Shown here one piece after another: positions 11,057 through 55,959 of a stretch of DNA of 64,000 bases. The notes beneath the pieces were generated by a model. That model was not told where the DNA came from, made no database searches, and worked only from the letters and a program-made list of their open reading frames with translations. The position numbers and the translations under genes were made by a program. Source of the DNA: an uncultured Bacteroidia bacterium (GTDB lineage Bacteria > Bacteroidota > Bacteroidia > Bacteroidales > Prolixibacteraceae); assembly GCA_903854235.1 (NCBI GenBank), contig CAINVV010000227.1:4065-68064 (forward strand), written 5' to 3'. The number at the start of each line of letters is the position of its first letter. Positions within the stretch are counted from its first letter, which is position 1.

Positions 11057-11075
11057 TGGTTGTCACGTTTGACTG

Positions 11076-25220: not shown

Positions 25221-25228
25221 CTAGAACA

Positions 25229-28351: not shown

Positions 28352-29527
28352 TTAATACCAGGGGTGGTTCTTGAGAGGAACAATACCTTTTTCCTTTGTG
28401 GTCCCAAGGATGGTTCTGCCTCCGAGCCAGTTATCAGTCCTGAATTGCGAGAAATTCATCTGGGTCGGGTCAAAACTGTCGATCCTGACGAAACCAGAGG
28501 AGTTGATATAGGCCCCATTCCCAAGGTAAAGGCCAACGTGAGTCGCCTTGGCAGGGAGATCTCCCTCGGCTTTCTTGCCAAAGAAGACCAGGTCGCCAGG
28601 TTTTAGCTTACCATATCCGCTTTGCGGATCCGTAAAAATTCCGTGTCGAAATTGTAATGAAGCATCGCGGGCCAAAATGTAACCATTCAGGAAAAAGACG
28701 GTCTTCACAAATCCACTGCAATCCACCCCTTTCGTGGAGGTTCCTCCCCACAAATAGGGACGACCCAGGAGCGTTCGGGCGCATTTGCTTAAATCCTCTG
28801 CGGTTGGGAGCCCTTTTTCTTTCCACATGGAAAAGTCCATGGCTTCTTCCAAAGGGATGGACAACCTTCTTCCATCCGGCATTTCAACCACTACACTCTG
28901 CCTGGAGAATTCATCCAATTTGAGAATACTTCCGGCCACCAGATCTGTGACGGCCTCTTTTGTCTCAGGATTAAAACCTGAGCCAAGGTTGCCAAGATAG
29001 ATCACTCGCTTGTCTTTTCTCCAAGCATCCAATCCCAGAGCATCGGTCTGATAGATGGCATCATCATCGACCCAGCCCAGGTAGTGGTCGGGAGTCTGAA
29101 TATAAATCCAGCGCCCGGATTTCTTTAGCAGATGAACCGGAGTCCCAAGAATGGCCTGCGAGATCATTTCGGCACTGTGACCAGGCAAGGCGCGGATGTT
29201 GCAAACACTAACATTGACCAGTCCCCAGGTTTTTTCCCCCATTGATTCACCCGGTAGAACAAGTATGCTGTCAATCGCGACCAGATTCGCTTTTGCCAAA
29301 GCAGTGAGCAATGCCTGTTTACATTCCGGGGAACTGGTCTCTCCGGAGGCTGTAAGTTGGGACCCGGTTTCCCTGAAATGGATTTGAAACAAATCTTCCC
29401 GGCTATCTGGTGCACATTGTTGGGCCACAGACTTATAAATTTGCTCAGCCTCCCTAACCGGGGAAGTGTTCGGTTGGCAGCCCACGCAAAATGCGGTAAA
29501 AACCAAAAGGTGAAGGAGACGCAACAT
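28352..29527 (-). CDS. exported NlpC/P60 (C40) peptidase with N-terminal SH3b-like domains (YkfC-like gamma-D-Glu-diamino-acid endopeptidase)
   Basis: Signal peptide, catalytic 'GGTSTKGVDCSGFV' and 'THVGLYLGNGAYINSS', and an SH3-like N-terminal half. Confidence 0.85.
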   Translation of the reverse strand: MLRLLHLLVFTAFCVGCQPNTSPVREAEQIYKSVAQQCAPDSREDLFQIHFRETGSQLTASGETSSPECKQALLTALAKANLVAIDSILVLPGESMGEKTWGLVNVSVCNIRALPGHSAEMISQAILGTPVHLLKKSGRWIYIQTPDHYLGWVDDDAIYQTDALGLDAWRKDKRVIYLGNLGSGFNPETKEAVTDLVAGSILKLDEFSRQSVVVEMPDGRRLSIPLEEAMDFSMWKEKGLPTAEDLSKCARTLLGRPYLWGGTSTKGVDCSGFVKTVFFLNGYILARDASLQFRHGIFTDPQSGYGKLKPGDLVFFGKKAEGDLPAKATHVGLYLGNGAYINSSGFVRIDSFDPTQMNFSQFRTDNWLGGRTILGTTKEKGIVPLKNHPWY

Positions 29528-29731: not shown

Positions 29732-32728
29732 TTAATTGATGCCACAGTTTTTATAAATGATGCGTTGAATTTCTGTCCTCACATTCAGTTCACTGATCCT
29801 GTTGTTTTCCCGTGTCGGGAAGACACGATTCGACAAGAAGATGTAGACCAGTCCATATTTGGGATCGACCCATACGAAAGTGCCGGTATAGCCCGAATGG
29901 CCAAAGCTCTCGGGGGAGGCGGCTTTGATGGGATAGGCTTCTTTTTCGCTCAATCCTGAATTGTTCAGCAAGGGTTTGTCGAATCCCATTCCACGTCTGT
30001 TGTTGTTTTGTGGAAATTGCACCCGGGAGAACTCCTTCAGCGTCGATGCCTTCAGGTATTGCTCCCCACCGTAATTTCCCATTTGCAGGTACATCTGCAG
30101 TAGTTTGGCCAGGTCATTTGCGGAGGCAAAGAGACCGGCATTGCCGGAAATGCCTCCCAATACAGCCGAAGATTCATCGTGTACGGTGCCTAGCAGTTGT
30201 TGTTCTCGATAGTAATTATCCAGTTCCGTTGGGATAATCTCATTCTCGCTAAATTTAACCAACGGGTTGTAAGTAATCCGGTAGGCTCCAAGCGGTTTGT
30301 AGAAATTGGAATCCAGCTGCGCCAGATATGGTTTGCCTGAAATTGTGCCAGTGATTTTTGGGGTCAATACAAATGGAAGGTCGCTGTAGACATAACTGCC
30401 TCGGGATTTTAGGCGTGATTTTCGAATGATTTTGAAAACTCTATCTGGAAATTTATTCTCCAGATAGAGTCCCTTGGCTACCTGAAGCGGATGTTTTCTA
30501 TCGGCTTCAAAGGCATACCATGCTGCAGTAATTTTCCCCTTTTTCAACGTCTCTTTCCAAAATGGAAGAAATGGAATGAGACCTGATTGGTGCGCCAAAA
30601 GCTCCCTGACCGTAATATCCGATTTATTGCTTCTATGGAATATCCTGTTTCTCCATTCCGGATAGTAGGCCGAGACTTTCTCATCCGGATTGACTTTCCC
30701 TTCGTCGTATAGTTTCATCCAGGCAGGCAGGCCCGCTGTCATCTTGGTAACGGATGCCAGATCATATAAATCATTCTCACGCTCTGGAATGATCCGGTCG
30801 TAACCGTGGAAACCATAAGCCTTGTGGAAAATTACCTTCCCGTCTTTGGCCACCAGAACATTGCAACCAGGGAATGCTCTTTGCTCCAGGGCTCCAGAAA
30901 CAATGGAGTCGATCTGTCTGTTGATTCTATCAGAAGCTACTCCAACCTCCTCTGGCAAGGTATATTTTAGCCTGATAGATTTTGAAATCGAAATGCCTTC
31001 TCCCATCTTGAACTTCCCGGTTACGGAAACGGGAAGCTTACCTTTGGCCCCAATCCCTCCAAAAATAAGTTGGGCGGAAAGTTCCTGGGCGAGTGAGTCA
31101 TTTTGATAGGCCAACAAAATCCCATCCATCTTTAATGGTGCTTTTACCTCTCCCAAACCATAAGGACTGCAAAAAAAGGCAACAATTGTTTGTTGTTTGC
31201 CGGAAAGAAAAGTTAAAAGAGAATCTAACCCGCCTGTAACGCCATAAGGCCTTGATGGAAGTGCTTTTTGGTCGCTTCCTACCTGCATCGAATGACGAAG
31301 TTTGCTTTCGTACATGGAATGTACGCCGGTAATAACGAGGTCATACTCCCCCAGTTTCTTCTGAAGTTCCACCCTTTCGGACTCAGAAAAATCTTGTTTT
31401 AGTTGAAAATGATCCACCTTTGTGTAGTTGGCCAACATCCTCTGGAAGGGCGTAATTCGTTCGCTTCCTACAGCAACCGACGCGATGCGTGTACGCTCCA
31501 GGTGAGCTACAGGTATGACACCATTTCTGTTGTTTAAGAGGGTGAGGGAGGATTCAATTATCTTACGTTTGACGAGTTCGGTTGCAGGTGTATTCAGCTC
31601 TTTGACCAATAATCCGGTCTCGATTTTTATTTTGCGATTTAGTCCGCACCACAACTTGGCTGCCAGCACTTTTCTGCATTTTAGTTCAAGTTCCTCTCTG
31701 GATAATTCATTTTTTTTCAGGGCTTCCACGACGGATTTTACCACCAATTCGGGATCTGCCGGAAACTCCAGAACATCGTTTCCTGCTTTTAATGCCAGAA
31801 CCGCAGCCCTGCCAGGTTCAACGTAGCCATCTACCCCTTTCATGTTCATGGCATCTGTGAGGACCAGTCCTTTGAAATGCCATTCGTGGTGAAGGATCCG
31901 ATCTATTATCTGCGGGGATAGGCTGGAGGGCAGATTTTTGGTTGAATCCAATGCCGGAACTCGCAGGTGTGCAGTCATGATACATCCAATACCGGCCCTG
32001 GATAAAGCCTGGAAAGGATACATTTCAAGCGAATCGAGCCGTTGTTTGAAATAGGGGAGAACCGGAAGCAGCAGGTGGGAATCCGTCTGGGTATCTCCGT
32101 GACCAGGAAAGTGTTTGGCTGTTGCCAGGATTCCATTTTCCTGCAAGGCACGCATGCATGCCAGGCTAAAATCTGTCACTTGGTTGCGAGATTCTCCGAA
32201 AGAGCGCATGCCGATAATCGGATTCATCGGTTCTGTGTTGATGTCGCAGGAAGGACCGAGGGTGATGTTGATTCCGATTCGCCTCATTTGTTGTGCCATC
32301 TCTCTGGCTCCCTCCCGGGCGAGTGTGGTATCCCCGGTTGCACCTAGTGCCATGTTGTATGGAAAGGGGTTGATCCCCTGTAACCGCATGCCGATGCCCC
32401 ATTCTGCATCCATTGCAATCAAAAGGGGTGTGGTAGAAATGGATTGGTAGAAATTGGTCAGATTGGCCTGTGTCACGGGATCCCCTTCAAAAAAAATAAT
32501 TCCGCCAAACCCGTATTTTTTTATTAGATCGGCATTCTGCAACTGTTGGGATGGCTTATTCCTGGCTGTAACAGATATCCACACCAGTTGGCCGACCCTC
32601 TGTTCATTAGAAAGAGAGAGGTACACCGAATCCACCCAGGGATGATGCATCAATTTTTCAAGATCTACCTGGGAATACGCAACCTTATAAACAAAAAAGA
32701 TCAAGGCCAGAACAAAATATTTTTTCAT
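29732..32728 (-). CDS. exported NagZ-type GH3 beta-N-acetylhexosaminidase fused to a beta-lactamase-fold (AmiE/PBP4*-like) serine hydrolase domain
   Basis: Signal peptide. NagZ signature 'KHFPGHGDTQTDSH' (32075-32116). Nucleophile region 'GLVLTDAMNM'. C-terminal 'ASVTK' SxxK motif (30743-30754). 998 aa. Confidence 0.88.
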   Translation of the reverse strand: MKKYFVLALIFFVYKVAYSQVDLEKLMHHPWVDSVYLSLSNEQRVGQLVWISVTARNKPSQQLQNADLIKKYGFGGIIFFEGDPVTQANLTNFYQSISTTPLLIAMDAEWGIGMRLQGINPFPYNMALGATGDTTLAREGAREMAQQMRRIGINITLGPSCDINTEPMNPIIGMRSFGESRNQVTDFSLACMRALQENGILATAKHFPGHGDTQTDSHLLLPVLPYFKQRLDSLEMYPFQALSRAGIGCIMTAHLRVPALDSTKNLPSSLSPQIIDRILHHEWHFKGLVLTDAMNMKGVDGYVEPGRAAVLALKAGNDVLEFPADPELVVKSVVEALKKNELSREELELKCRKVLAAKLWCGLNRKIKIETGLLVKELNTPATELVKRKIIESSLTLLNNRNGVIPVAHLERTRIASVAVGSERITPFQRMLANYTKVDHFQLKQDFSESERVELQKKLGEYDLVITGVHSMYESKLRHSMQVGSDQKALPSRPYGVTGGLDSLLTFLSGKQQTIVAFFCSPYGLGEVKAPLKMDGILLAYQNDSLAQELSAQLIFGGIGAKGKLPVSVTGKFKMGEGISISKSIRLKYTLPEEVGVASDRINRQIDSIVSGALEQRAFPGCNVLVAKDGKVIFHKAYGFHGYDRIIPERENDLYDLASVTKMTAGLPAWMKLYDEGKVNPDEKVSAYYPEWRNRIFHRSNKSDITVRELLAHQSGLIPFLPFWKETLKKGKITAAWYAFEADRKHPLQVAKGLYLENKFPDRVFKIIRKSRLKSRGSYVYSDLPFVLTPKITGTISGKPYLAQLDSNFYKPLGAYRITYNPLVKFSENEIIPTELDNYYREQQLLGTVHDESSAVLGGISGNAGLFASANDLAKLLQMYLQMGNYGGEQYLKASTLKEFSRVQFPQNNNRRGMGFDKPLLNNSGLSEKEAYPIKAASPESFGHSGYTGTFVWVDPKYGLVYIFLSNRVFPTRENNRISELNVRTEIQRIIYKNCGIN

Positions 32729-32750: not shown

Positions 32751-34619
32751 TTAATCGAACTTTTCTAACGGATTCTTTTTCCCAAAATCCGGTTTTACAT
32801 TCAGAAAGAGTACCGGGATAACACCCGGAACCATGCACAACATCACCCACACAAAGAAATGCTTGTATCCGATAATCTCCTGCAACCATCCAGAGAACAT
32901 CCCTGGAAGCATCATACTCAGGGCCATAAATCCAGTGGCAATGGCAAAATGGGCGGTTTTATTTTCTCCTTCTGCAATGTAGATCATGTAAAGCATGTAG
33001 GCGGTAAAACCAAAACCATAGCTAAACTGTTCGATGGCAGCACACAGACTGATGATTAAATAGTTGGATGGCTGGGCATAGGCCATATAAACATAGGCTA
33101 CATGAGGGATGTTGATGGCAAGAACCATCCACCACAGCCAATACTTGAATCCCTTTCTGGAAGCAGCGAGGCCACCCAGAATACCTCCGGCTGTGAGCGC
33201 CAGAATACCAAAAGTGCCATAAATGAGGCCAACTTCACCGGTTGTCAGACCCAATCCACCTACCTGTCGCGGATCCAGCATAAACGGAGAGGCCATTTTT
33301 ATCAACTGTGCCTCTCCAAAACGATAGAACAACAAGAAGGAGAGTATGACCCAGATTTCCTTGCGCCTGAAGAATGAACCAAAGGTCCGGAAGAAGGCTC
33401 GAAACAGGTTTTCTTGTTCCTGGATGACCCTCTTGTCTGAAGGAGGATAGGGTAACATCAATCGGTGGTAAAAGGAGAATAGAACAAACAAAATGGCTAA
33501 TATAAGGAAAGTGAGACTCCAGGCGAGGTGAATGTTTCCGGAAGTTCCTTTAAAACTGGCTTCCGTTGGAGCATTGAGTTTGGAATCCGCCTGAAACAAA
33601 AGATAGGCAGGTTGCTCCCAGTTTTGTAGGTTAAAGGCCAGTCGCTCTCCTTCCAACAATCTAAGATCATTGTCTCCATCCTTCATTTTGAAATTTAGAA
33701 TCATCTCTTTACCTGCTTCCGGTTTGCCGTTCAGTTTGATGGCCACAATCGCCAGATTGCCAGTCATTTTTTCACCAGAGGTGATCCCTTCTGTTTTAGG
33801 AAAGTGTTTTTGAAGGAAGCTTTTCAGGGGAGAAGAGACATAATCGGACCAAAAGGAGGAACTGTCGTCTTTTCTACTGGCCGCCAATGGGTTGCCATTC
33901 CCTACAAACCCAAATTCGAGGTTGTGACTGGTGACGATTTTGCGCACTGAATCCATCTGCCTGGCAGTGATGTTTTGCGTCGTGAGACTGGCCACCTCGG
34001 GGAAAGCAGAAAAACTGGCAGTGCCGGATTGTGCCTTTGCATCCTGAAAAAGCTGGGGAATTGTGATCGTTCGTGCATAGGAAGGATTGGCTTTCACCTG
34101 GATATCAATCGGAGGCAATCCGGTTGTGGTCTCAAAATATCCAGCAAGAATGATTAACAACCCCTGACCAGTAATCATCGCAATGCGGTAAAAAGTACTT
34201 CTTATCCCAACAAAATAAGCTTGTTGGTGTTCATTAAGTCCTAGCATATAAAACCCATCGGCCGAAATATCATGCGTAGCTGAACTGAAAGCAAGCAACC
34301 AGAGGAAGATCAGGGTTATTTTGAAATAGCCAGGCAATGGAATGGCCAGAGCTACCCCCCCCAACGCAGCACCAATCACCAGTTGCATGAAAATAATCCA
34401 CCATCGCTTGGTTTTAAAGAGATCCACCACCGGACTCCATAATGGTTTAATGACCCAGGGTAAATAGAGCCAACTGGTATACAGGGCAATATCCGTATTT
34501 GAAATGCCAAGTCTTTTAAACATAATTACAGCAACGGTCATGGCCACTACATAGGGAACGCCCTCTGCAAAATAGAGGGTTGGGATCCAGGTCCAGGGGT
34601 TGCGGAAAGCTTTTTTCAT
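32751..34619 (-). CDS. ampG: AmpG-family MFS muropeptide permease with ~200 aa loop insertion
   Basis: N-terminus 'NPWTWIPTLYFAEGVPYVVAMTVAVIMFKRLGISNTDIALYTSWLYLPWVIKPLWSPVVD' is AmpG-like. Multiple TM segments. A hydrophilic block spans about residues 165-363. Confidence 0.8.
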   Translation of the reverse strand: MKKAFRNPWTWIPTLYFAEGVPYVVAMTVAVIMFKRLGISNTDIALYTSWLYLPWVIKPLWSPVVDLFKTKRWWIIFMQLVIGAALGGVALAIPLPGYFKITLIFLWLLAFSSATHDISADGFYMLGLNEHQQAYFVGIRSTFYRIAMITGQGLLIILAGYFETTTGLPPIDIQVKANPSYARTITIPQLFQDAKAQSGTASFSAFPEVASLTTQNITARQMDSVRKIVTSHNLEFGFVGNGNPLAASRKDDSSSFWSDYVSSPLKSFLQKHFPKTEGITSGEKMTGNLAIVAIKLNGKPEAGKEMILNFKMKDGDNDLRLLEGERLAFNLQNWEQPAYLLFQADSKLNAPTEASFKGTSGNIHLAWSLTFLILAILFVLFSFYHRLMLPYPPSDKRVIQEQENLFRAFFRTFGSFFRRKEIWVILSFLLFYRFGEAQLIKMASPFMLDPRQVGGLGLTTGEVGLIYGTFGILALTAGGILGGLAASRKGFKYWLWWMVLAINIPHVAYVYMAYAQPSNYLIISLCAAIEQFSYGFGFTAYMLYMIYIAEGENKTAHFAIATGFMALSMMLPGMFSGWLQEIIGYKHFFVWVMLCMVPGVIPVLFLNVKPDFGKKNPLEKFD

Positions 34620-34658: not shown

Positions 34659-35996
34659 TTATCTCTCATATCTTTTTTCAAGTTCTGCTCCCACAAAATA
34701 GTGTTTCAATATTTCTTCGTGAGCATACCCTTTTTCTCCCATCATGGCAGCACCGATCTGGCAAAGTCCGACACCATGGCCCCAACCGGCACCTGTTAAG
34801 ATGATTTTACCGGGGATGTTGTCACTCCACTCTTCGTAATCGACGACAAAAGCCGAGCTGTACAAATGTGAGTTGGACAGTATTTTCCTTATTTCCAATT
34901 CTTTGCCGACTGTTAATGTCTTCTTCGTACCGATTATCTTCATTTTTACTAGTCTGCCAGAATTTCCCCTTTCAACAGGTTGGATTCCAATAATTAGTCC
35001 GAAATCAAATCCGGTTTTTCTTAGAAGGAGTTCAGAAAGCTCAGATTGCCCAAAGGTTACCTTCCACCTGTAAAAATCCATGGTTTCCTGATCGTAGTCG
35101 TTAAGCACCTGTGAAAGGACCTTGTGATCGGTGGTGTTGCAAAAAGCATCGGGAGAAGAGCGAATCCATTTATCTGCCTCGCGTTCATTTGTCAGCACCG
35201 GAACGTCCCTGATATGACCTTCAGGTGTGTCATAGAAAGTCTGCAAGTAAGGATGAACCTCCGGTTCCCATACTTTTTCAAAGGTTTCCGTCGCACCACC
35301 GCAACTCTTGGAGAAACGTGCATCACACACTTGTCCCTCAAACATCAAGACCATACCGAAGGTATCGGTTACTGCTCTTTCAACGAGATTGCTGCTTTGA
35401 CGTGTAATGCCCTGATAGCGTTGACAGTGGTCATCGGCGCAAACATCAAATAGTTGATGATCTTCCCGGTCATACCATCGAATGTATTCTTCCTTTGTTT
35501 GATGGATGGTTTGGTAGTTGACTTTGGATGCTCTTAAGTCACTCCCTTTTACGACCTGAGCTATTAGCCAGGAGCGGGAGATGACTGCATGTGCCTTCAA
35601 CAGTTCCAGGCTGCTGGTGGCGCTCATCTCAGAGGAGATTACACTAATCAGATAATCTTCCAACGGTAAAATATTAATGGCCTGAAGTTTATTCCCTTCC
35701 GGAAGAAATTGGAGGGCGCCTTTAAATAGTTGATCTTCCTTTCGCTCCCAGTGGAATTGCACCCCAATGGTAACATCGGACAGTTCGAAGGAACAGTTGT
35801 TTGCATTCAGTGGAATAAAAGTAAGATCGGGTTGGTCAAAGGGCAGACCATTGAGCGAAATTTTCCCATCTTCCAAACGGATGACCTGTTTCCCAGAACA
35901 GATGGTCCCATTTTCAAACTGCGTATATTCACCGTTGAGGCAAAAACGAATTTCCGTTTCTGCCATGATCCCTATCTTCAATTGTGGCTGATTCAT
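34659..35996 (-). CDS. SpoIID/LytB-domain protein without a detectable signal peptide
   Basis: 'AHAVISRSWL', 'CQRYQGI', 'FSKSCGGATE' and 'GWGHGVGLCQIGAAMMGEKG'. ATG 35996 gives a TAAcATG junction with the upstream gene; ATG 36059 is an alternative. Confidence 0.8.
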   Translation of the reverse strand: MNQPQLKIGIMAETEIRFCLNGEYTQFENGTICSGKQVIRLEDGKISLNGLPFDQPDLTFIPLNANNCSFELSDVTIGVQFHWERKEDQLFKGALQFLPEGNKLQAINILPLEDYLISVISSEMSATSSLELLKAHAVISRSWLIAQVVKGSDLRASKVNYQTIHQTKEEYIRWYDREDHQLFDVCADDHCQRYQGITRQSSNLVERAVTDTFGMVLMFEGQVCDARFSKSCGGATETFEKVWEPEVHPYLQTFYDTPEGHIRDVPVLTNEREADKWIRSSPDAFCNTTDHKVLSQVLNDYDQETMDFYRWKVTFGQSELSELLLRKTGFDFGLIIGIQPVERGNSGRLVKMKIIGTKKTLTVGKELEIRKILSNSHLYSSAFVVDYEEWSDNIPGKIILTGAGWGHGVGLCQIGAAMMGEKGYAHEEILKHYFVGAELEKRYER

Positions 35997-35997
35997 G

Positions 35998-36978
35998 TTA
36001 AATGACCTCCCTTTGAAATTTGGAAATGGATTGGCGAAGTCTTTGAAAACCTTCGTCATCCAAAGTTACCTGGTTAAAAATATCCAAAATAACCGATTCT
36101 GTTATTTTTTCGTAATCCTCATGGCGCGGGGTGATGAAGACCCCGCCAAAATCAACGGCAGCAGGACTAATGAGCAGTTGCCTGTCACCCTCCTCAAAAA
36201 ACTGGGAAGGGCGATGCAGTTTGCGCGGGAAGAGATGAATGATCCATTTCCCCTCCTTAAAATAGCTGAGCAGGTTCATCATCGGCTCCACCTTGCCCGG
36301 TTGAAGTTCTCCCAAGCTACTGGTGACGTACTCCAAAGCGGATACCCCAGCTTCCGCACGCTCAAATTCAAAGGAAATCATCTTTCTGACATAGTTTCCA
36401 AAAGCCCATATTTTTAATCCTTCCGATTGATGGAGTAGATATTCGGTTTGGATTTTTAAGGTTTCAAAATCTTCTTCGACAGGCATAAAACCATTTTCTC
36501 CGGCTTGAAAATGGAGATGGTCGGGTGCAGAAGCTCCACATTCCGGACCATTGTAAAACACGGTGTAGCCTGTCATTTGAAGGGCAAATTCCAACAGGGC
36601 GGGAAAATTTCCACTGATTAGCTGGTCTGTATGGTGAAGAAATGGAAGTGTGAAATGGATCCGAAAGATCGGAAAGGGATTGACCAGAAGCAGAAAATCG
36701 TGCCCCATCAGGAGATGTCGCTGCTCCTCAGGACGATTTTCGGTACATAAAAAGCATTTTCGTGCGGTGATGGAACCCCTGTCCACTTTGGCAGCAGAAG
36801 ATCGTATTCTTTCGGGATTGAATTGAATCCTGAACTTCCATCCATTAAGGGTTAGATCCCGCTCTACTACCTGGTCCAGGTTGCGGTAATTGTCGTACGA
36901 GAGCTTCCAGTCATGGTTTTGGTCTATCAGAAAATTTCTGTACCTGTCGTTTTTTTGTACCATTTTTTTATGCACCAT
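35998..36978 (-). CDS. DUF4922-like protein, HIT superfamily GalT/Ap4A-phosphorylase/GDP-L-galactose-phosphorylase branch
   Basis: 'FYNGPECGASAPDHLHFQAG' (HxHxQ at 36505-36519), 'IQFNPERIRS' and 'LLLVNPFPIFRIHFTL'. No signal peptide. Confidence 0.7.
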   Translation of the reverse strand: MVHKKMVQKNDRYRNFLIDQNHDWKLSYDNYRNLDQVVERDLTLNGWKFRIQFNPERIRSSAAKVDRGSITARKCFLCTENRPEEQRHLLMGHDFLLLVNPFPIFRIHFTLPFLHHTDQLISGNFPALLEFALQMTGYTVFYNGPECGASAPDHLHFQAGENGFMPVEEDFETLKIQTEYLLHQSEGLKIWAFGNYVRKMISFEFERAEAGVSALEYVTSSLGELQPGKVEPMMNLLSYFKEGKWIIHLFPRKLHRPSQFFEEGDRQLLISPAAVDFGGVFITPRHEDYEKITESVILDIFNQVTLDDEGFQRLRQSISKFQREVI

Positions 36979-38437
36979 TTTTATCCTTGTTCATCGCCTT
37001 CCTGGCAAGGAATTCGATGGTCCTGATTCTGTCTTTGTAAAGATTGTGTCCATTCATCACCTCCACGCTTAAGGAGGCATCTGAATTGTCGTCCCATCTT
37101 CGGCAAAGATAAATTGGGTCATAGATTCTGCCAATCTGGTAATGTCTCGAAATAGCCAGTCCGAGGGCATAATCTTCGCCATAATTCACATTGGGCACTT
37201 TTATACAGCGAAGGACCGGTGTATAAAAGGCTCTTGGCGCGCCTAATCCATTAATTCGCAATGCATTATTTCGGCCATTATCGGGCGTCCATTCCTTATG
37301 GTCAATGATTCCAGGCGGAATTTCCTCGAGCGCAAAGTTGACCATCTTGTAGGAACCCACCACCATGGCACATTGCTCCCTGTAAAAAGCATCCACCACT
37401 TGCTGAAGGGTCGTCTCATCGAGATAAAGATCGTCGCTGTCCAGTTGAACCGCAAATTTTCCACACAGAGGGTGCGCCGCCGCTGCATTCCAGCAACCAC
37501 CTATACCCAAATCCTTGCGGTCAGGAATGAGATGAATCAGCCTGGCATCTTTTTCGGCATATTTCTCGATAAGTTCAGTAGTCCCATCTGTCGAGTAGTT
37601 ATCGGCGATGATCAGGTTAAAAGAAAAATTGGCTTTCTGGGAGAGGACGGAGACAATGGCATCTTCGATGGTACGCACCCGGTTTCTGACCGGTATAATC
37701 ACGGATGCTTCCACGGGAAAAGACTCCGCGTTAAAGTCGACTGGGTGAAAAGTAGGCTCGAGATAGGCCCCCGAAGTTTTAAGAAAGCTGGTACAGACTT
37801 TTTCCATCTCGACCTGTACGGCCCGATTTTTGGGATCCACATAATCGAAGATTTTCTCACCAGAGAGACGAAGGTCGGATTCCTCTTCGGTATAGAGATA
37901 CTCTGGAATCCTGAAAATCGGAGCAATCAACGATAGTTGGAGGCGGAGCGCATAAAGGCCAGCACGGGAAAGTCCCTTGTCGACCTGTGCGGCTGCCATT
38001 TTGAAATACTCACTCTTGTAAAACAGGAGTGAACCAAAATTGAAATCATCCCGCAAGCCACCTTCCTGATAGTCTATCACAGGATTTACCTCGGGAATAC
38101 CTGATTTCACCGCCAGATAATTCGAATAGAGCATTCCGCTACCGGTATCTTCGGCTATTTGTACAAAGCGTTCCAGGGCAAACTGGCTCAATTTCAGCGG
38201 ACTGTGCCTAGTATAGAGCAGCATATATTCCGAACGACCTTGGGCGGCGATGGTCTGAATGGCGGATCCACTGGTCATGCTATCCGTGTAAAGCCATTCA
38301 GCACCTTCCACGTCAAAAAGGGCCTTCTCAGATCCAATCAGAAATATTTTGGCAATCAAGGCAGAACTTCTCAGTTCCCTGACTGTTGCCTTTGTCTCAT
38401 TTTCACTCCCAAAAGGGATAAAACAGGTAATCTTCAT
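36968..38437 (-). CDS. family-2 glycosyltransferase with ~240 aa N-terminal extra domain
   Basis: C-terminal half has 'ASVIIPVRNRVRTIEDAIVSVLSQ', 'IIADNYSTDGT' and 'VQLDSDDLY' (DxD). The N-terminal half starts 'KITCFIPFGSENE', which is GT-A-like but degenerate. Confidence 0.8.
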   Translation of the reverse strand: MKITCFIPFGSENETKATVRELRSSALIAKIFLIGSEKALFDVEGAEWLYTDSMTSGSAIQTIAAQGRSEYMLLYTRHSPLKLSQFALERFVQIAEDTGSGMLYSNYLAVKSGIPEVNPVIDYQEGGLRDDFNFGSLLFYKSEYFKMAAAQVDKGLSRAGLYALRLQLSLIAPIFRIPEYLYTEEESDLRLSGEKIFDYVDPKNRAVQVEMEKVCTSFLKTSGAYLEPTFHPVDFNAESFPVEASVIIPVRNRVRTIEDAIVSVLSQKANFSFNLIIADNYSTDGTTELIEKYAEKDARLIHLIPDRKDLGIGGCWNAAAAHPLCGKFAVQLDSDDLYLDETTLQQVVDAFYREQCAMVVGSYKMVNFALEEIPPGIIDHKEWTPDNGRNNALRINGLGAPRAFYTPVLRCIKVPNVNYGEDYALGLAISRHYQIGRIYDPIYLCRRWDDNSDASLSVEVMNGHNLYKDRIRTIEFLARKAMNKDKNGA

Positions 38438-38464: not shown

Positions 38465-41400
38465 CTATTTTTTATCCAGAACCCGAATCACTTGGCCAAT
38501 CAGAGCATCCCGTTCCTCCGTTGTGGATATCGTTTCGATCGGAATACCAAGAACGACGGCTGCATATTTGCCCTTGAAACAGACTCCGGCACTTTTGTTG
38601 TCCCCAAAATAGCGAAAAAGAACGGATGCCCCATTCCCGGCAGGTTCAATGGCGTCGGGCGATTCTACTTTGTAAATGGTTGGATGCCAATTGTTCACAT
38701 AGTGATAGGCTTCGATATTTTTTTCTTTCCAACCATTGACTGTGTAAATAAGACCAGATTTTGAGCCGTGGCTGGTTCGTAGCGTGTAGTGAAGGGTTTC
38801 GGCTGCGAATTTTTTTGACAGCGAATCTCCACACAACGATAGGTCTGATCCTAGATAGGCGCCAGACAACAACAACTTGGCCCCATCATAATTGGCTATT
38901 CTGGTTAAGGCAGCTCTCATCCCCGGGGTAAAAATGGTGAAGTCCCTACCGGGAAAGCCAATGGACCTGCTGGTAGTCTTCTCTTCCCCAAAAATCAGAT
39001 CTACTATCGAGAAAGAGGGGGTATTTATTTGTTGCTTTTCAAAAGCTTCGTCGCTCATTGAGATAAATCCGAATCCATTGTTTCGGAATGATTTTCCGTG
39101 AACATAGGGATAGTCGAAACTATTTCCAGGAACAATCCGGGTCTCCTGGTCTGCGTGACTGGATCCAAAACCGGAAGCATCATCATCCAGCCAAGGGGAT
39201 TTGCGGTCAAAATCATACTGCTCTCCAATGTAGGATACGTTTTTAAGGTAGGAAACTCCTTCATCTTCCGACATCAGGAAGCCTGCCTTTTTACCGTTGT
39301 CGTAGGCTGCCGGAGCACATATTCTATCGAAGCCATTGACGATAAGTACTGGTTTCTTCCCGTCGATGGGAAGGGAGCAGGCGAGAATCTCGGATGGAAA
39401 GCTCTCACCGCCTTCATTGAAGGCGGTCACTTTGAAGCTGACAATCGTCCCTGGCTTCAGATTTGTAATTGACAAGGTAGTATCCCTGACTACAATCCCT
39501 TCATCAAATCCATCATCTTCAATCCGTTTGTATACCCTGTACCCAGATGGTTTTGCGGTGGGTTCAAGCAGATCAGTTACAGGAGTCCAGGAGAGTATCA
39601 AACGATTTTCCTCCAGGTTCATGGCCATATGGTCTACTGGCAATGGCTGAACGACGTAGGGAAACCCGTTCTGATAGGAAAGAAATTTTAATATTCCTTT
39701 GTAGAAGGCACGGCAAACATCGAACTTGAACCGGGGGTCCTGGGCGAGATACATGTCCGCGAAATTCTGGTGGGAGAGCAATTCAGACAAGATGGCCGGC
39801 ACTTTGGGTCTTGCCGCCTCAAAATATTTTTTATTCCAGAGTCCTCGCCTGGTCCAGTCGGCTTTGTGCAATTTTTGCAAATCACCCACCACCTGGGATT
39901 GAACGATATCTGCAAGATCGCGGCTGGCCCATTTGGACTGTCCGTTGGGAAAAGTCTCCTTATCAAAGGAGGTATCGAAAATCATCAGGGAACCGATGAT
40001 GGAGCTGTCGGGAGTGGTTCCTGCGTCGGTATGAAAGGCCATCGACAAATCCATCGGAATGCCCATCCCTTTCACATGAGGAGCCTTGGTAGGTCCATTG
40101 GGATCACCCATCAGGTAATTGACAAATTCACCCCGGCTCATGTAGTCGTCCTTGTAGTCCTCCTTGCCGCTTTCGCGCTGGGCAAAATTGGCAGCATCAG
40201 ATCCACGGTTGGAATAATCGACCTTGGTACGGTTCAGGTTGTACACAATCGAATCGGGAAATCCTGCGTACTGGAGGTAGTACCTGGCCGCCTCCTGGTA
40301 TCGGGGGCGTTGACTGGTGAAGGGAATCCAAGCCGTTGAATCCATCTTCCAACCCTTCTTTTCGCGTAGTTCATACAATTTTTTCAGTTGAGGCTCATTC
40401 CCGCGCACGATGTTTCCAGTCCCCCCACCGAAACGCACCGCATCTGCGGAGATCATTTTCCCGGGTTCACCGGAAGAATTGGCCAGCAAAACCATTCCCC
40501 GCTCTGGATGTTTGCCTTTTTCAAATTTGAAGGTCCCAAGGTAGATCCAAGTCCCTCCACCGATCGACTGGTTTACCCTGAAGGTCGTTTGTCCACCGGC
40601 ATGGGAGATGGTGTAGCTTGCATCCGTTGCATTTTTTTCGCTTTGGAGATAGGAGATGTAAACGGCATAATAGTCTGTTTCAGGAATTTCCGGAACGTAT
40701 TTGGCAAACGCATCAGCTGTTGATTTGGCTGCGACGGTTCGGGTGTGACCAAACTGGAATGGATTTTCCCCGTCGAACAAAAAAGGATATTTGAATGCAA
40801 ATCCTGGCTGAACTGAGTTTTGCCAGTTTTCACCCTCCTCCTTGTATTCAGACCCGGGGGAAGATCCTTCTGCATCCACTACGACTTCTCTGTAGCCGAA
40901 ATCCCTTTCGCGGGGTAACCACACCGTGGCTCCGGCATTCTCGAGCATCGGAGTCAGGTAGGGAACCACAAAACCAAGCGTCCAGATATCCTCAACGGTC
41001 AGGAAATCCCTTGCCCGCTGCCATTCCCAACGATCCAGCGTGTTTTCGTAATACCATCCGTGGCTGTGCCATAGGGAGATGTTCCGGTTGTCCAGCCCTT
41101 TGGGGAACTTTACATCCCGAGTTAGGTTGCGGGCCACCTGAGCGGGTCTTGGTCTGTTCACCGTCAGACGAGCGGAGTCGATCCGGTCTGATTTGCTTCG
41201 ATAAAAATTAGGGACCAATTCTCCGATTTCTTTCCCCATGGTGGTGATGGTGAGGTTGCTTTTTTTGAATTTTCTACCGAGCAACAGCCTGTAGTCGGTG
41301 TAATATTTTTTTATATCCTCCGGTCGGAAGGGGATTTCACAGAAGGAAGGGTTCATAACCAGTTGGAGGATATCCCCCTTTGGGTTCATTTTGACGGTAT

Positions 41401-41605
41401 CCATCCTGAATTTATAGTTTGTACCCGCAGAAACTTGTATGGCAAACTCTTTGGAAGCCTCTTTGGCCTTTTTGTAAAGCCGCTGTTTCTTATCAGCCAT
41501 GGATACCTGCGTCAGCATTAGCAGGGCAAAGATCAGTAGCATTAATCTTGACAGAGGCAAAGCATATCCTTGCGTTCGATGGCAACTCAGGCGATATTTT
41601 TTCAT
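38465..41605 (-). CDS. 1046-aa exported multidomain protein: split Amidase_3-like (MurNAc-L-Ala amidase-fold) region with a large beta-rich insert, an Fn3 domain, and an unknown ~300 aa C-terminal domain
   Basis: ATG 41605 lies 8 nt after the upstream stop and gives the signal 'LMLLIFALLMLTQVSMA'. Amidase-like motifs 'LWHSHGWYY', 'TVEDIWTLGFVVPYLTPMLENAGATV', 'MAFHTDAG' and 'ILSELLSHQNFAD'. The insert contains 'GGGTWIYLGTFKF...ISADAVRF'. Fn3-like segment at about residues 655-745. Confidence 0.65.
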   Translation of the reverse strand: MKKYRLSCHRTQGYALPLSRLMLLIFALLMLTQVSMADKKQRLYKKAKEASKEFAIQVSAGTNYKFRMDTVKMNPKGDILQLVMNPSFCEIPFRPEDIKKYYTDYRLLLGRKFKKSNLTITTMGKEIGELVPNFYRSKSDRIDSARLTVNRPRPAQVARNLTRDVKFPKGLDNRNISLWHSHGWYYENTLDRWEWQRARDFLTVEDIWTLGFVVPYLTPMLENAGATVWLPRERDFGYREVVVDAEGSSPGSEYKEEGENWQNSVQPGFAFKYPFLFDGENPFQFGHTRTVAAKSTADAFAKYVPEIPETDYYAVYISYLQSEKNATDASYTISHAGGQTTFRVNQSIGGGTWIYLGTFKFEKGKHPERGMVLLANSSGEPGKMISADAVRFGGGTGNIVRGNEPQLKKLYELREKKGWKMDSTAWIPFTSQRPRYQEAARYYLQYAGFPDSIVYNLNRTKVDYSNRGSDAANFAQRESGKEDYKDDYMSRGEFVNYLMGDPNGPTKAPHVKGMGIPMDLSMAFHTDAGTTPDSSIIGSLMIFDTSFDKETFPNGQSKWASRDLADIVQSQVVGDLQKLHKADWTRRGLWNKKYFEAARPKVPAILSELLSHQNFADMYLAQDPRFKFDVCRAFYKGILKFLSYQNGFPYVVQPLPVDHMAMNLEENRLILSWTPVTDLLEPTAKPSGYRVYKRIEDDGFDEGIVVRDTTLSITNLKPGTIVSFKVTAFNEGGESFPSEILACSLPIDGKKPVLIVNGFDRICAPAAYDNGKKAGFLMSEDEGVSYLKNVSYIGEQYDFDRKSPWLDDDASGFGSSHADQETRIVPGNSFDYPYVHGKSFRNNGFGFISMSDEAFEKQQINTPSFSIVDLIFGEEKTTSRSIGFPGRDFTIFTPGMRAALTRIANYDGAKLLLSGAYLGSDLSLCGDSLSKKFAAETLHYTLRTSHGSKSGLIYTVNGWKEKNIEAYHYVNNWHPTIYKVESPDAIEPAGNGASVLFRYFGDNKSAGVCFKGKYAAVVLGIPIETISTTEERDALIGQVIRVLDKK

Positions 41606-41613
41606 AAGTGCAA

Positions 41614-42735
41614 TTAAACTTTGATAAATATTTTCTTTTTGAACAAAAAATACCCCAACAACCAGAAGAGAAAAACGTGGGATATGGCAAAGAGCAACGA
41701 TCCATTCAACTCTCCTGCCAGAGGCAGAAACACATTGTTGTACAACCAGGCTGAGCCGCTTATCATTTTCCCATTGGTCGAGGGAATCTGGATCAACCTG
41801 CCGAGAATCCTGGCCCATAATCCGGAGAAGGCAAAGATAAAAAGGGGGTTTACCCCGAACACGATAAAGAAGGAACACCAGTAGGAATATCCTTTCAAAT
41901 CGATAAGCCAGATCAACAAGGCGAGCATTAAGGAGGCCCAACCAGCAGAATATAAAACATAGGAGCTGGACCAAATTGGTTTCGAAATGGGAAAATAGAG
42001 ACCCCATAACCAGCCTGTAATCACTGCAAGAATGCCAGCCACAGCCAGCGTGAGGGGAACTTTCCCTTTGGGGGTCTCTTTGATGACGGATCCTGCCAGG
42101 TACCCAATCACCACCGTGACGATGGAGGGCAGGGTGCTGAAAATCCCCTCGGGATCGAACGGAATCCCAAAACCTCTGTAAAGATGATCTACGCCCAGCC
42201 AGGCTGTATCAAAAGGAATGGCAGGATTGCCCTGAAGGGAATATGGGTCTGTTCCTCCTCCCCAAGCAACCAATCCCCAATATAGGAGGAGGATCAATCC
42301 GCTTGCAAAAGGCAAATATTTCTTGTTCATGGATAAAACGAGCAAAGCTGCCAGTCCGTAGGCCAACGCAATCCGCTGCAAAACTCCCATGATTCTCAAA
42401 TGGGCATAGTCAGCACTCCATTGGGGAAAAGAATTCAAGAAGAGGCCTATCGCAAAGATCAAAAGGGTGCGTTTCCCTATTTTCAGCAGGGATTCCTTGT
42501 TCAATCGGTTGCCATATTTGGAGAATGAAAAAAACATGGAAGCCCCGACCACAAAAAGAAAGAAGGGAAATACCAGATCAGTTGGAGTACACCCCTGCCA
42601 GGCAGCATGTTCCAGGGGAGCATATATATGTGCCCAGCTACCGGGATTGTTGACGAGAATCATCAATGCCACGGTCATCCCCCGAAGTACATCCAGGGCA
42701 AGATACCTTTGGTTGTTTGGTGATATGTTTTCCAT
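41614..42735 (-). CDS. DUF5009/DUF1624 membrane acyltransferase (heparan-alpha-glucosaminide N-acetyltransferase-like, NagX-like)
   Basis: 'RYLALDVLRGMTVALMILVNNPGSWAHIYAPLEHAAWQGCTPTDLVFPFFLFVVG' plus about 10 further hydrophobic segments. Confidence 0.78.
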   Translation of the reverse strand: MENISPNNQRYLALDVLRGMTVALMILVNNPGSWAHIYAPLEHAAWQGCTPTDLVFPFFLFVVGASMFFSFSKYGNRLNKESLLKIGKRTLLIFAIGLFLNSFPQWSADYAHLRIMGVLQRIALAYGLAALLVLSMNKKYLPFASGLILLLYWGLVAWGGGTDPYSLQGNPAIPFDTAWLGVDHLYRGFGIPFDPEGIFSTLPSIVTVVIGYLAGSVIKETPKGKVPLTLAVAGILAVITGWLWGLYFPISKPIWSSSYVLYSAGWASLMLALLIWLIDLKGYSYWCSFFIVFGVNPLFIFAFSGLWARILGRLIQIPSTNGKMISGSAWLYNNVFLPLAGELNGSLLFAISHVFLFWLLGYFLFKKKIFIKV

Positions 42736-49514: not shown

Positions 49515-49523
49515 GCCTGAAAT

Positions 49524-54739: not shown

Positions 54740-54743
54740 TGAT

Positions 54744-55835: not shown

Positions 55836-55959
55836 ATTCTGGCTATTTTTACCAAAATTAACTTTATTTTTCTGAATTTGCTTATTCTCCAAACTAAAAG
55901 ACAGCTTCAAATCGCTTCGCCCCTTTATTTAAATATTTGTACTTTTACAAAAAAAATCC

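Follow-up and report, generated by a model that had tools for sequence, protein, structure and literature searches.

A DUF4922 protein of the HIT superfamily and its linkage to GT2, SpoIID-like and AmpG genes in a Bacteroidota peptidoglycan-salvage locus

The DUF4922 gene and its neighbours

The window analysed here, a 64,000-nucleotide stretch of DNA from a Prolixibacteraceae-like member of the Bacteroidota, carries on its minus strand a peptidoglycan/MurNAc utilisation locus in which a protein of the families DUF4922 and GDPGP1_C is encoded at 35998..36978. The open reading frame gives 326 residues, and an alternative start at M6 (position 36963) gives the 321-residue version that is called in the public contig. 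Assignment to DUF4922 (PF16269), already made in the first-pass annotation, is borne out by a Pfam match of 197.2 bits against a cut-off of 23.6 bits, which spans residues 17-160 and 145 of the 146 profile positions. The C-terminal half is GDPGP1_C (PF26216) in the precomputed Pfam annotation of an identical protein (P0001), and this domain is annotated in 120/120 homologues among those listed. Ap4A_phos_N matched the query at 13.8 bits (E 0.041), under its 23.1-bit cut-off, and membership of the Ap4A phosphorylases was rejected on this threshold; some DUF4922 fusion proteins match Ap4A_phos_N more strongly than the query does. A Pfam scan at E ≤ 10 reported no other Ap4A-phosphorylase family for the protein, including the C-terminal one. 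GalT membership was likewise rejected on Pfam thresholds, with no GalT family matching at E ≤ 10, and the Pfam scans gave no match to NTP_transferase. No NCBIfam model matches the protein.

The flanking genes are tightly packed. Directly upstream, at 36968..38437 on the minus strand, lies the gene for a 489-residue tandem GT-A glycosyltransferase, the stop codon of which overlaps or abuts the DUF4922 start. Its C-terminal domain belongs to GT2 and contains the sequence QLDSDD, in which DSDD is intact, and its N-terminal domain is GT-A-like with no Pfam match; the protein carries no export signal and is similar to K4CP, a polymerase with two active sites, and to TarS/TarP, which depend on UDP-GlcNAc. 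Downstream, the ATG of a SpoIID/LytB-like protein (34659..35996, minus strand, start at M22) begins 1 nt past the DUF4922 stop. This protein keeps the SEM catalytic-glutamate motif and is predicted to be cytoplasmic because it has no signal peptide. Next comes a 622-residue muropeptide permease of the AmpG family of MFS transporters (32751..34619, minus strand), with an insert of ~200 residues between its two MFS halves. Upstream of the glycosyltransferase, the minus-strand gene at 38465..41605 encodes an exported 1046-residue protein, here called BigAmi, with Golvesin_C, fn3 and a weak Amidase_3 match. No AnmK, AmgK or MurU was found among the scanned open reading frames of the 64-kb window, a result that says little about the remaining genome.

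Fold and conserved residues

The motif on which the first-pass annotation rested is present as described: HLHFQ at 36505-36519 matches the minus-strand translation exactly, with positions 36475-36534 translating to ASAPDHLHFQAGENGFMPVE and the HLHFQ codons running from 36519 to 36505. The other blocks quoted there, IQFNPERIRS, LLLVNPFPIFRIHFTL and FYNGPECGASAPDHLHFQAG, all occur in the DUF4922 translation. Within the pentapeptide (H154-L-H156-F-Q158; 36505..36519, minus strand), H156 is the predicted nucleotidyl-accepting histidine by analogy with characterised members of the branch, H154 is a predicted zinc ligand, and Q158 is a conserved glutamine. Closer to the N terminus, and also on the minus strand, are a predicted zinc-binding CxxC, C75-F-L-C78 (36745..36756), which is the same tetrapeptide as C52-F-L-C55 of Escherichia coli GalT, and H116 (36631..36633), a predicted fourth zinc ligand that aligns with GalT H115. 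The F53-N-P-E-R57 block (36808..36822, minus strand) is probably a phosphate- or nucleotide-binding loop, and the V99-N-P-F-P103 block (36670..36684, minus strand) aligns with LLLNKFPVV of Apa2. Among 128 representatives with 34-50% identity to the query, H154, H156, N100, P101, P103, H108, N143, G144 and R57 are 100% conserved, Q158 is conserved at 99%, N54 at 98%, and both the CxxC and H116 at 97%. Because these residues are near-invariant over relatives of such low identity, HLHFQ is not a chance match. The sequence CFLC occurs 78 times in a neighbour protein set of 356,366 residues, those occurrences listed individually belonging to DUF4922 homologues.

The AF2 model of the DUF4922 protein (pLDDT 80.8, pTM 0.84) shows a HIT-like fold of two alpha+beta domains and has yeast Apa2 as its best Foldseek match, with E 7.3e-9, probability 1.0 and TM 0.53-0.59 for 4i5t over ~320-330 columns, which is the full length. 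The Apa2 entries 4i5t and 4i5w gave E values of 7e-9 to 2e-8, and the DUF4931 structure 4qvu gave 3.5e-6. Both structure prediction and profile comparison therefore recover the fold that had been proposed from the motif. Searching the PDB with the single protein sequence gave only chance matches to inhibin, and profiles were needed to reach Apa2: family profiles match it (E 0.0019 and 2.8e-6) and bring the motifs into register. Wild-type Apa2 scored 30.2 bits against the profile, compared with 24.0 bits for an entry in which a histidine is replaced by alanine (4i5v, DHKALQ). Apa2 (PDB 4I5T/4I5W), of the ATP adenylyltransferase family, resembles the DUF4922 protein in both domains over the full length, has the nucleophile histidine in common with it, and is the sole solved protein reached by sequence profile, where LLVNPFPIF..H aligns with LLLNKFPVVPEH and ..DHLHFQ with ..DHKHLQ. 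The two proteins differ in that they share 16% identity, Apa2 lacks the CxxC and has no histidine at the H116 position in the printed alignments, and the genomic context of DUF4922 is one of peptidoglycan sugars and not of nucleotide housekeeping.

GalT of E. coli (PDB 1HXP/1HXQ) shares with the DUF4922 protein the HxHxQ motif, an identical CFLC and the four aligned positions of the candidate zinc site, whereas the overall architecture of the DUF4922 protein is closer to Apa2. No GalT chain was matched by the model at E ≤ 0.1 in Foldseek, and GalT was not matched in profile searches of the PDB. H154, H156 and Q158 align with H164, H166 and Q168 of GalT (HPHGQ), the profile-to-GalT alignment being confined to this 43-column nucleophile block. 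In a pairwise local alignment, C75, C78, H116 and H154 pair with GalT C52, C55, H115 and H164, which we take from the published structures to be the zinc ligands of that enzyme. The GalT sequence used is identical to 1HXQ. From these alignments, the DUF4922 protein probably contains zinc at C75/C78/H116/H154. Foldseek, the profiles and the HPHGQ alignment agree with the first-pass placement of the protein in the branch that includes GalT, Ap4A phosphorylase and GDP-sugar phosphorylase, and we consider it very highly probable that its fold and catalytic class are those of the HxHxQ branch of the HIT superfamily.

The link to GDPGP1/VTC2 is seen in the Pfam architecture of DUF4922 followed by GDPGP1_C. 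An hhalign comparison with a provisional VTC2 sequence, which matched no Pfam family, was weak (E 0.0027, probability 11%, 205 co-linear columns across both halves), and the pentapeptide HLHFQ presumably also occurs in Arabidopsis VTC2. At most a remote relationship is indicated, and the bacterial clade differs from the eukaryotic proteins in its length of ~320 residues, in its linkage to GT2, SpoIID and AmpG, and in showing no connection with the metabolism of GDP-hexoses or ascorbate. DUF4922 has been reported in animal GDPGP1, and plant GGPs have been assigned to the CDD 'DUF4922 superfamily'. The connection of DUF4922 to HIT proteins and Ap4A phosphorylases is therefore not new and is already held in databases, since Pfam pairs DUF4922 with GDPGP1_C and JGI gives homologues the product name 'ATP adenylyltransferase/Ap4A phosphorylase II'. 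The first-pass annotation gave no strand and left aside the linkage to GT2, SpoIID and AmpG, where the informative evidence lies. Literature searches on DUF4922, PF16269, COG4360 and the Tanf locus tags found no characterisation of a bacterial DUF4922 protein.

Gene linkage across phyla and the ampG operon of Tannerella forsythia

Related loci were counted in the best 80 loci of a genome scan covering ~20 kb per genome, none of them from Tannerella. In 55 of the 65 informative loci the gene directly upstream of DUF4922 is a GT2 on the same strand, and such loci occur in Bacteroidota, Ignavibacteriota, Acidobacteriota and Verrucomicrobiota. Because the gene stands without an adjacent upstream GT2 in the other 10/65, the coupling is frequent and not obligatory, and GT2 was rejected as an obligate partner. 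SpoIID-like genes are present in ~50 and AmpG in 41 of the best 80 loci, which also contain MurQ (25), MurK-like (25), D-lactate-dehydrogenase-like (18) and NamZ (16) genes, with amidases and GNAT proteins recurring as well. In one type of Prolixibacteraceae locus, DUF4922 is accompanied by NamZ, MurK, MurQ and a possible MurT in a setting without SpoIID or AmpG.

Natural fusions join the same families. GT2::DUF4922 proteins (P0145, P0254 and P0257), DUF4922::SpoIID proteins (P0215, P0239, P0167, P0126 and P0214) and GNAT::DUF4922 proteins were found, and for two of these fusions the surrounding genes were those expected. Among orthologues, an export signal or hydrophobic N terminus was present in 1/58 GT2, 0/74 DUF4922 and 0/48 SpoIID-like proteins, and export signals were present in 21/22 GH9-CE4, 30/30 BigAmi, 17/18 NamZ and 12/12 GH3/beta-lactamase proteins. 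Only GT2, DUF4922 and SpoIID-like proteins were without export signals. GT2, DUF4922 and the SpoIID-like protein form a conserved and sometimes fused trio over several phyla that is predicted to be cytoplasmic, a heuristic call made from the absence of an export signal.

The sole experimentally studied instance of this gene order is an operon of T. forsythia, a MurNAc-auxotrophic periodontal pathogen. Its genes, Tanf_08345-08385, are arranged as xanthan lyase, gtf, gtf, lytB, ampG, namZ1, murT, murK and murQ, are co-transcribed and are activated by GppX. The order corresponds to BigAmi-GT2-DUF4922-SpoIID-AmpG in the window, with BigAmi in the place of the 'xanthan lyase' gene at the head of the operon. 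A Bacteroidales locus of the scan (L062) matches too and continues with NamZ and, further on, a multi-TM protein and a MurK-like protein. The window organism differs from T. forsythia in being Prolixibacteraceae-like and in having extra SusC/D and peptidase genes. AmpG of T. forsythia imports GlcNAc-(anh)MurNAc, and the bacterium grows on the GlcNAc-anhMurNAc that AmpG brings in. T. forsythia has AmgK/MurU and no predicted AnmK, and cytoplasmic steps are therefore missing from its pathway. The two 'gtf' genes of the operon were still described as being of unknown function in a 2021 paper. One of them, Tanf_08355, is called a glycosyltransferase in the papers, whereas its position suggests DUF4922; with orthology taken from gene order only, it most likely encodes a HIT-type nucleotidyl-histidine enzyme and not a glycosyltransferase.

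Proposed role in peptidoglycan salvage and alternative explanations

Given this setting, participation of the DUF4922 protein in the salvage of peptidoglycan sugars appears likely, and the protein probably handles a nucleotide-activated cell-wall sugar in that process. We propose an NDP-amino-sugar role because DUF4922, the tandem GT-A protein and the signal-less SpoIID-like protein are encoded directly upstream of AmpG in a peptidoglycan/MurNAc utilisation locus. The best reading, which we hold on balance, is of a cytoplasmic NDP-amino-sugar phosphorylase or transferase, and analogy with the branch gives somewhat better than even prospects to a chemistry that connects NDP-amino sugars and sugar-1-phosphates. 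By this analogy, H156 would attack the alpha-phosphate of a nucleoside-diphosphate compound to form a covalent nucleotidyl-histidine, which phosphate or a sugar-1-phosphate would then resolve. The enzyme would in this way interconvert an NDP-amino sugar resembling UDP-GlcNAc or UDP-MurNAc and a sugar-1-phosphate, and the NDP-sugar could be handed to, or taken from, the partner glycosyltransferase. Of the possible directions we tentatively favour phosphorolysis (NDP-sugar + Pi -> NDP + sugar-1-P), at well below even confidence. The earlier suggestion that it could be a UDP-amino-sugar phosphorylase fits this context. In contrast, the accompanying suggestion that DUF4922 replaces MurU or GlmU is disfavoured, both because the usual, and at times fused, partner of the gene is a glycosyltransferase instead of a Mur enzyme, and because T. 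forsythia, apparently with the same operon, already has AmgK/MurU. The modelled fold of the DUF4922 protein is HIT-like and not the Rossmann-like, UTP-using NTP_transferase fold of MurU/GlmU, and any substitution for these enzymes could only be functional and non-orthologous. Should phosphorolysis or synthesis of UDP-MurNAc or UDP-GlcNAc prove true, peptidoglycan salvage would have a nucleotide-sugar branch and bacterial DUF4922 its first function.

The chemistry could also run towards synthesis, with DUF4922 making an NDP-amino sugar such as UDP-MurNAc or UDP-GlcNAc from a sugar-1-phosphate, for use by GT2 or in peptidoglycan synthesis, either in the manner of GalT (UDP-hexose + sugar-1-P) or as a reversed phosphorylase (NDP + sugar-1-P). 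LnpC/GalT2 of Bifidobacterium, a GalT-type enzyme that acts on the N-acetylhexosamine-1-phosphate produced by the anomeric kinase NahK, is a precedent for such a step, DUF4922 shares its catalytic machinery with GalT, the context is one of peptidoglycan salvage, and the GNAT::DUF4922 fusions recall the pairing of acetyltransferase and uridylyltransferase in GlmU. Nevertheless, neither the window nor the recurrent neighbour families yielded an anomeric kinase of the AmgK/NahK type, AmgK/MurU are already present in T. forsythia, and a cytoplasmic GT2 has no obvious glycoside to make in otherwise degradative loci. The characterised relatives, the GDPGP1/VTC2 and Apa1/2 enzymes, are to our knowledge phosphorylases and not transferases, and we consider this anabolic use of the enzyme rather unlikely. 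Less probable again is a role in proofreading the NDP-sugar pool, where DUF4922 would clear away a faulty nucleotide sugar formed under a flood of salvaged amino sugars. GDPGP1, which shares the DUF4922 and GDPGP1_C architecture, is said to control GDP-glucose levels, and the 10/65 loci in which the gene has no adjacent GT2 would suit such a function; a proofreading role has been proposed for animal GDPGP1. However, tight operonic coupling and fusion to GT2 and SpoIID-like proteins are not expected of a pool-cleaning enzyme, and no more than a remote relationship to the eukaryotic members could be shown.

If the protein were merely a housekeeping phosphorylase of Ap4A and other dinucleoside polyphosphates, with an incidental genomic context, the finding would be ordinary. 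Apa2 as the closest solved structure, the JGI product names, and Ap4A_phos_N matches that are weak in the query and stronger in some fusion proteins all point this way. Against it stand the sub-threshold score of that match with no C-terminal family reported, a predicted CxxC/His zinc site that is absent from Apa2, and the fusions and the conserved proximity to peptidoglycan genes in several phyla, which would be left unexplained, and this reading is very improbable. Least credible of the alternatives is a protein without catalytic activity that would bind a nucleotide sugar and, as a scaffold or regulator, adjust the activity of GT2 or of the SpoIID-like protein: the fusions do suggest physical association, but H156, Q158, H154, the CxxC, N100 and R57 are essentially invariant over a deep family, which is the pattern of an active enzyme.

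The preferred reading, an NDP-amino-sugar phosphorylase or transferase, can be extended to the whole trio in a way that we regard as speculative and improbable as it stands. GT2, DUF4922 and the cytoplasmic SpoIID-like protein might make up a nucleotide-cycling route, not described before, through which muropeptide sugars imported by AmpG would pass. The inverting tandem GT-A protein, working in reverse with a catalytic amount of NDP, would open a beta-glycosidic bond in GlcNAc-(anh)MurNAc, or perhaps even the 1,6-anhydro bond within anhMurNAc, to yield an NDP-alpha-amino sugar, which DUF4922 would phosphorolyse to a sugar-1-phosphate with regeneration of NDP. Literature searches on cytoplasmic SpoIID and on a phosphorylase/glycosyltransferase route for anhMurNAc likewise turned up no characterised bacterial DUF4922 protein. 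Sucrose synthase acting with UDP-glucose pyrophosphorylase runs a glycosyltransferase in reverse to give an NDP-sugar and then a sugar-1-phosphate while recycling the nucleotide, and this energy-conserving cleavage of a glycoside is a conceptual precedent for the catabolic scheme. The folds of that pair (GT-B and a PPi-using nucleotidyltransferase) are unrelated to those of the enzymes considered here, and the analogy is a functional one only. If the route were true, bond energy would be conserved without ATP or UTP, and T. forsythia and related anaerobes would gain the cytoplasmic steps that they lack, independent of both AnmK and NagZ. The processing of GlcNAc-anhMurNAc after import by AmpG is an acknowledged gap in Bacteroidota, and the finding of the trio narrows it to a small set of direct experiments.

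The DUF4922 protein has the fold and catalytic residues of the HIT branch

The DUF4922 gene is an open reading frame of 326 codons at 35998..36978 on the minus strand, and the identical gene in a public contig is annotated as a 321-aa product starting at M6. The first-pass annotation had placed a nucleotidyl-histidine motif, HLHFQ, in this protein, and its position is borne out: 36475-36534(-) translates to ASAPDHLHFQAGENGFMPVE, with the motif at 36519..36505, and the two quoted upstream blocks, IQFNPERIRS and LLLVNPFPIFRIHFTL, are both found in the translation. The Pfam DUF4922 match covers residues 17-160 with 197 bits. Relatives number 7,622 at E <= 0.001 in a word-index search and 1,643 among 50%-identity representatives in an exhaustive search. 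Across 128 representatives with 34-50% identity to the query, H154, H156, N100, P101, P103, H108, N143, and G144 are conserved in 100% of sequences, Q158 in 99%, and C75, C78, and H116 in 97%. Because it is conserved across such divergent representatives, HLHFQ is a family signature and not a chance match.

An AlphaFold2 model calculated from 30 homologues (pLDDT 80.8, pTM 0.84) matched the two-domain yeast Ap4A phosphorylase Apa2 (4i5t/4i5w) in Foldseek (E 7e-9 to 2e-8, probability 1.0), with a TM of 0.5-0.6 across some 320 columns. A DUF4931 structure (4qvu) followed at E 3.5e-6, and the Foldseek search with this model gave no further match below E 0.1. Apa2 was also reached by sequence profiles, at E 0.0019 from an alignment of close homologues (A1) and 2.8e-6 from an alignment of divergent homologues (A3). 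In the profile alignment LLVNPFPIF..H stands opposite LLLNKFPVVPEH, and FYNGPECGASAPDHLHFQ opposite FYNcGPHSGSS-QDHKHLQ. The Apa2 entry 4i5v, whose motif carries a substitution of the second histidine (DHKALQ), scores 24.0 bits, versus 30.2 for the wild type. Since the alignment is in register and the replaced-histidine entry scores lower, H156 sits on the second histidine of the Apa2 motif, which we take to be the nucleophile.

The same residues can be followed into E. coli GalT, with a comparison sequence identical to PDB 1HXQ. H154/H156/Q158 align with GalT H164/H166/Q168 by profile, and in a pairwise local alignment C75-F-L-C78, H116, and H154 stand opposite C52-F-L-C55, H115, and H164. 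From published GalT structures, C52, C55, H115, and H164 are presumably the structural zinc ligands. We therefore predict a zinc site in the query from the alignment. Apa2, unlike the query, lacks both the CxxC and a histidine equivalent to H116, and this joint absence fits the idea that C75, C78, H116, and H154 form one co-evolving metal site. Together, the Apa2 matches and the GalT motif alignment uphold the earlier assignment to the HxHxQ branch of the HIT proteins. Within that branch, Ap4A_phos_N scored 13.8 bits against a threshold of 23.1, and no GalT family match was obtained by Pfam, Foldseek, or profile; the query is therefore filed under the HxHxQ branch with a DUF4922/GDPGP1_C architecture and not as an Ap4A phosphorylase or GalT. 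A comparison by hhalign with a plant VTC2 sequence, which itself has no Pfam match, gave a weak alignment (E 0.0027, probability 11%) that is co-linear over 205 columns and spans both halves.

The superfamily assignment is correct but not new, as it is already in public annotation. The identical public protein carries precomputed Pfam annotation as DUF4922 + GDPGP1_C, and many bacterial homologues bear the JGI product name 'ATP adenylyltransferase/5',5'''-P-1,P-4-tetraphosphate phosphorylase II'. [quoted passage not shown] Our literature search found nothing on bacterial DUF4922 proteins.

DUF4922 is linked to a tandem GT-A glycosyltransferase and a SpoIID-like enzyme

What the present analysis adds is a conserved, at times fused, GT2-DUF4922-SpoIID module, predicted to be cytoplasmic, beside AmpG. 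In the window, the stop codon of GT2 (36968-38437(-)) overlaps the first ATG of DUF4922, and the ATG of the SpoIID/LytB-like gene (34659-35996(-)) starts 1 nt past the DUF4922 stop. A scan with one genome per species confirmed 582 loci. The analysis covered the best 80, which are spread over Prolixibacteraceae, other Bacteroidales, Rikenellaceae, Prevotellaceae, Ignavibacteriota, Acidobacteriota, and Verrucomicrobiota. Of the 65 loci with enough upstream sequence, 55 have GT2 directly upstream of DUF4922 in the same orientation and 10 do not; coupling to GT2 is the rule, not a law. Partners among these best 80 of 582 loci, counted by tblastn and clustering with Pfam annotation of cluster representatives, were the SpoIID-like protein (~50), AmpG (41), a large amidase-like protein (39), GH9-CE4 (26), MurQ (25), a MurK-like protein (25), NamZ (16), a GntR regulator (14), and beta-lactamase-fold, GH18, and FAD/Fe-S D-lactate-dehydrogenase-like proteins (18 each). 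Ignavibacteriota show the orders Amidase_3-GNAT-AmpG-GT2-DUF4922-NamZ-beta-lactamase and SpoIID-GT4-x-GT2-DUF4922-GH18. A second type of Prolixibacteraceae locus (L008, L009, L012, L014-L017, L021; e.g. L009 9971-11423) reads SSF-symporter - MurT? - amidase-like - [+/-GT2] - DUF4922 - 152-aa protein - NamZ, without SpoIID and AmpG; here the constant partner of DUF4922 is the conserved 152-aa protein, which has no Pfam match. The common thread of all loci is peptidoglycan/MurNAc utilisation.

The link is at times physical. Among database homologues, the representative search returned GT2::DUF4922 fusions (P0145, P0254, P0257), DUF4922::SpoIID fusions with SpoIID at the DUF4922 C-terminus (P0215, P0239, P0167, P0126, P0214), and GNAT::DUF4922 fusions (P0249, P0256). 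Two fusions stand in the expected context, as GHL10 - GT2::DUF4922 - SpoIID - AmpG in an NCBI MAG and as GT2 - GNAT::DUF4922 - AmiA-like amidase. In several lineages a GNAT acetyltransferase is fused to DUF4922 or encoded next to it (L082 4362-5867; L064 6501-7028; L073 10939-11850), and an AmiA-like amidase adjoins it in others (L082, L026). These associations hint at N-acetylation chemistry on a shared substrate.

Export signals, called by a simple N-terminal hydrophobicity heuristic, are present on all glycosidases, amidases, and peptidases encoded in the window block and on none of GT2, DUF4922, and the SpoIID-like protein. Across related loci they occur on GH9-CE4 (21/22), the large amidase-like protein (30/30), NamZ (17/18), and GH3/beta-lactamase-fold proteins (12/12), and on GT2 in 1/58, DUF4922 in 0/74, and the SpoIID-like protein in 0/48. 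The three module proteins are therefore predicted to reside in the cytoplasm together with AmpG imports. The usual site of action of SpoIID-type enzymes is outside the membrane, which makes a predicted cytoplasmic SpoIID-like protein unusual; our literature search found nothing on a cytoplasmic SpoIID. The SpoIID-like protein of the window retains the catalytic SEM glutamate motif of solved SpoIIDs. GT2 has an intact QLDSDD, and its model (pLDDT 73.5) is a tandem GT-A that matches the two-site chondroitin polymerase K4CP best (E 2.6e-17, ~550 columns) and the UDP-GlcNAc-dependent TarS/TarP next. The Pfam match and DxD (DSDD) are confined to the C-terminal domain; the model gives the N-terminal ~240 aa a GT-A-like shape, but they have no canonical DxD, and an invariant RDDF (129-132) falls in a low-confidence loop. 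At 67-87% identity across Marinilabiliales, GT2 is more conserved than DUF4922.

The Tannerella forsythia operon and candidate reactions

In Tannerella forsythia, Tanf_08345-08385 ('xanthan lyase' - gtf - gtf - lytB - ampG - ybbC(namZ1) - murT - murK - murQ) forms a single transcript directly activated by GppX, and a 2021 preprint describes Tanf_08345, 08350, and 08355 as genes of unknown function. The Bacteroidales locus L062 reads amidase-like - x - GT2 - DUF4922 - SpoIID - AmpG - NamZ - DLD - multi-TM - MurK-like. Judged by this agreement in gene order, Tanf_08355, the second of the two 'gtf' genes, very probably encodes the DUF4922 orthologue. A new label is thereby proposed for a 'glycosyltransferase of unknown function' that belongs to an experimentally studied operon of a pathogen. 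T. forsythia requires AmpG for growth on complex MurNAc sources, can use GlcNAc-anhMurNAc, and carries AmgK/MurU; yet according to the published account 'no AnmK ortholog ... is predicted', and how the organism proceeds from there 'remains to be explored'.

H156 would react with an NDP-X compound to give a nucleotidyl-enzyme. Since the partner enzyme is NDP-sugar-dependent and the locus concerns GlcNAc/MurNAc, an amino sugar is the most likely identity of X, and the candidate reaction would be NDP-amino sugar <-> sugar-1-P. Among characterised relatives, GDPGP1/VTC2 and Apa1/2 are phosphorylases, and the locus is otherwise degradative, which favours phosphorolysis; our best guess is a UDP-amino-sugar phosphorylase. 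A GalT/LnpC-like anabolic route to UDP-amino sugars we regard as unlikely, because no anomeric kinase was found in the window or among the recurrent neighbour families and MurU is present in T. forsythia. The earlier suggestion of a MurU/GlmU replacement is disfavoured.

A more specific and rather doubtful form of the phosphorylase reading has an inverting GT2 running in reverse on an imported beta-linked disaccharide or 1,6-anhydro bond to yield an NDP-sugar, which DUF4922 would phosphorolyse, recycling the nucleotide, in analogy to sucrose synthase with UGPase. It would account for the cleavage in the cytoplasm and the AnmK-independent steps that are missing, but some loci lack GT2 and we rate it low partly for that reason. 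GDPGP1-like proofreading of the nucleotide-sugar pool appears improbable, a plain Ap4A phosphorylase highly improbable, and a non-catalytic role scarcely credible.

Salvage genes surrounding the module

The DUF4922 gene belongs to a long minus-strand block, embedded in a peptidoglycan-sugar salvage locus. It includes an exported fusion of GH9 and CE4 polysaccharide deacetylase (45845-48391(-)), which suggests periplasmic glycan cleavage dependent on deacetylation; many Bacteroidales loci have its gene between those for the SpoIID-like protein and AmpG. A transglutaminase-like protein, a GHL10 protein, and a 373-aa multi-TM protein (41614-42735(-)) follow. The last has no Pfam match even at E 0.05 and is probably the MurNAc transporter MurT, because its L062 homologue directly precedes the MurK-like gene. 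The next gene encodes a 1046-aa Golvesin_C/fn3/weak-Amidase_3 protein with a clear signal peptide (38465-41605(-)), the counterpart of the T. forsythia 'xanthan lyase'; its mechanical ORF (38465-42007(-)) overlaps the previous gene, and the likely start is M135 (41605), as in the public contig.

AmpG (622 aa, 32751-34619(-)) has ~200 residues without an MFS match between its halves (Pfam 25-126 and 365-570), and its orthologues are 420 to 634 aa long. An Acinetobacter AmpG has an extra domain that docks a lytic transglycosylase (2026 paper). Beside it lies an exported 998-aa GH3 + beta-lactamase-fold fusion (29732-32728(-)), the architecture of the characterised beta-N-acetylglucosaminidase RmNag3 of Rhodothermus marinus (PMC6987092); no NagZ without a signal peptide was found within the window. 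An exported NlpC/P60+SH3 peptidase (28352-29527(-)) adjoins an MR_MLE (L-Ala-D/L-Glu epimerase-like) protein (27132-28268(-)), whose N-terminus, MKANRRTFLEATSLAAGAG, looks Tat-like and suggests a periplasmic location.

A divergent pair at 48669-50342(+) comprises a 281-aa protein with a GTG start and only a weak BcrAD_BadFG match, probably a MurK-type MurNAc kinase, and a MurQ-like SIS etherase, with a NagA-like gene beyond. The pair, often with a GntR regulator, is found again in 25 related loci. In Bacteroidales loci a large FAD-oxidase + 4Fe-4S (D-lactate-dehydrogenase-like) protein follows AmpG (L027 16421-19024 and 17 others) and could plausibly use up D-lactate from MurQ. SusC/SusD genes (21828-27055(+)) adjoin the block, and a calcineurin-like phosphoesterase + PQQ/beta-propeller fusion (19605-21476(-)) is found again next to the module in unrelated loci (L062 6646-8511, L015 18430-20265). 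Unrelated or loosely related neighbours (253-6989, 7082-9451, 9560-12789, 53378-55910, 57926-59119) include histidine-utilisation genes (urocanase, amidohydrolase, formiminotransferase-cyclodeaminase), a class A PBP, an ECF sigma/FecR pair with a CarboxypepD_reg protein, an M23 peptidase, a ManC-like nucleotidyltransferase, and a NagA-like amidohydrolase.
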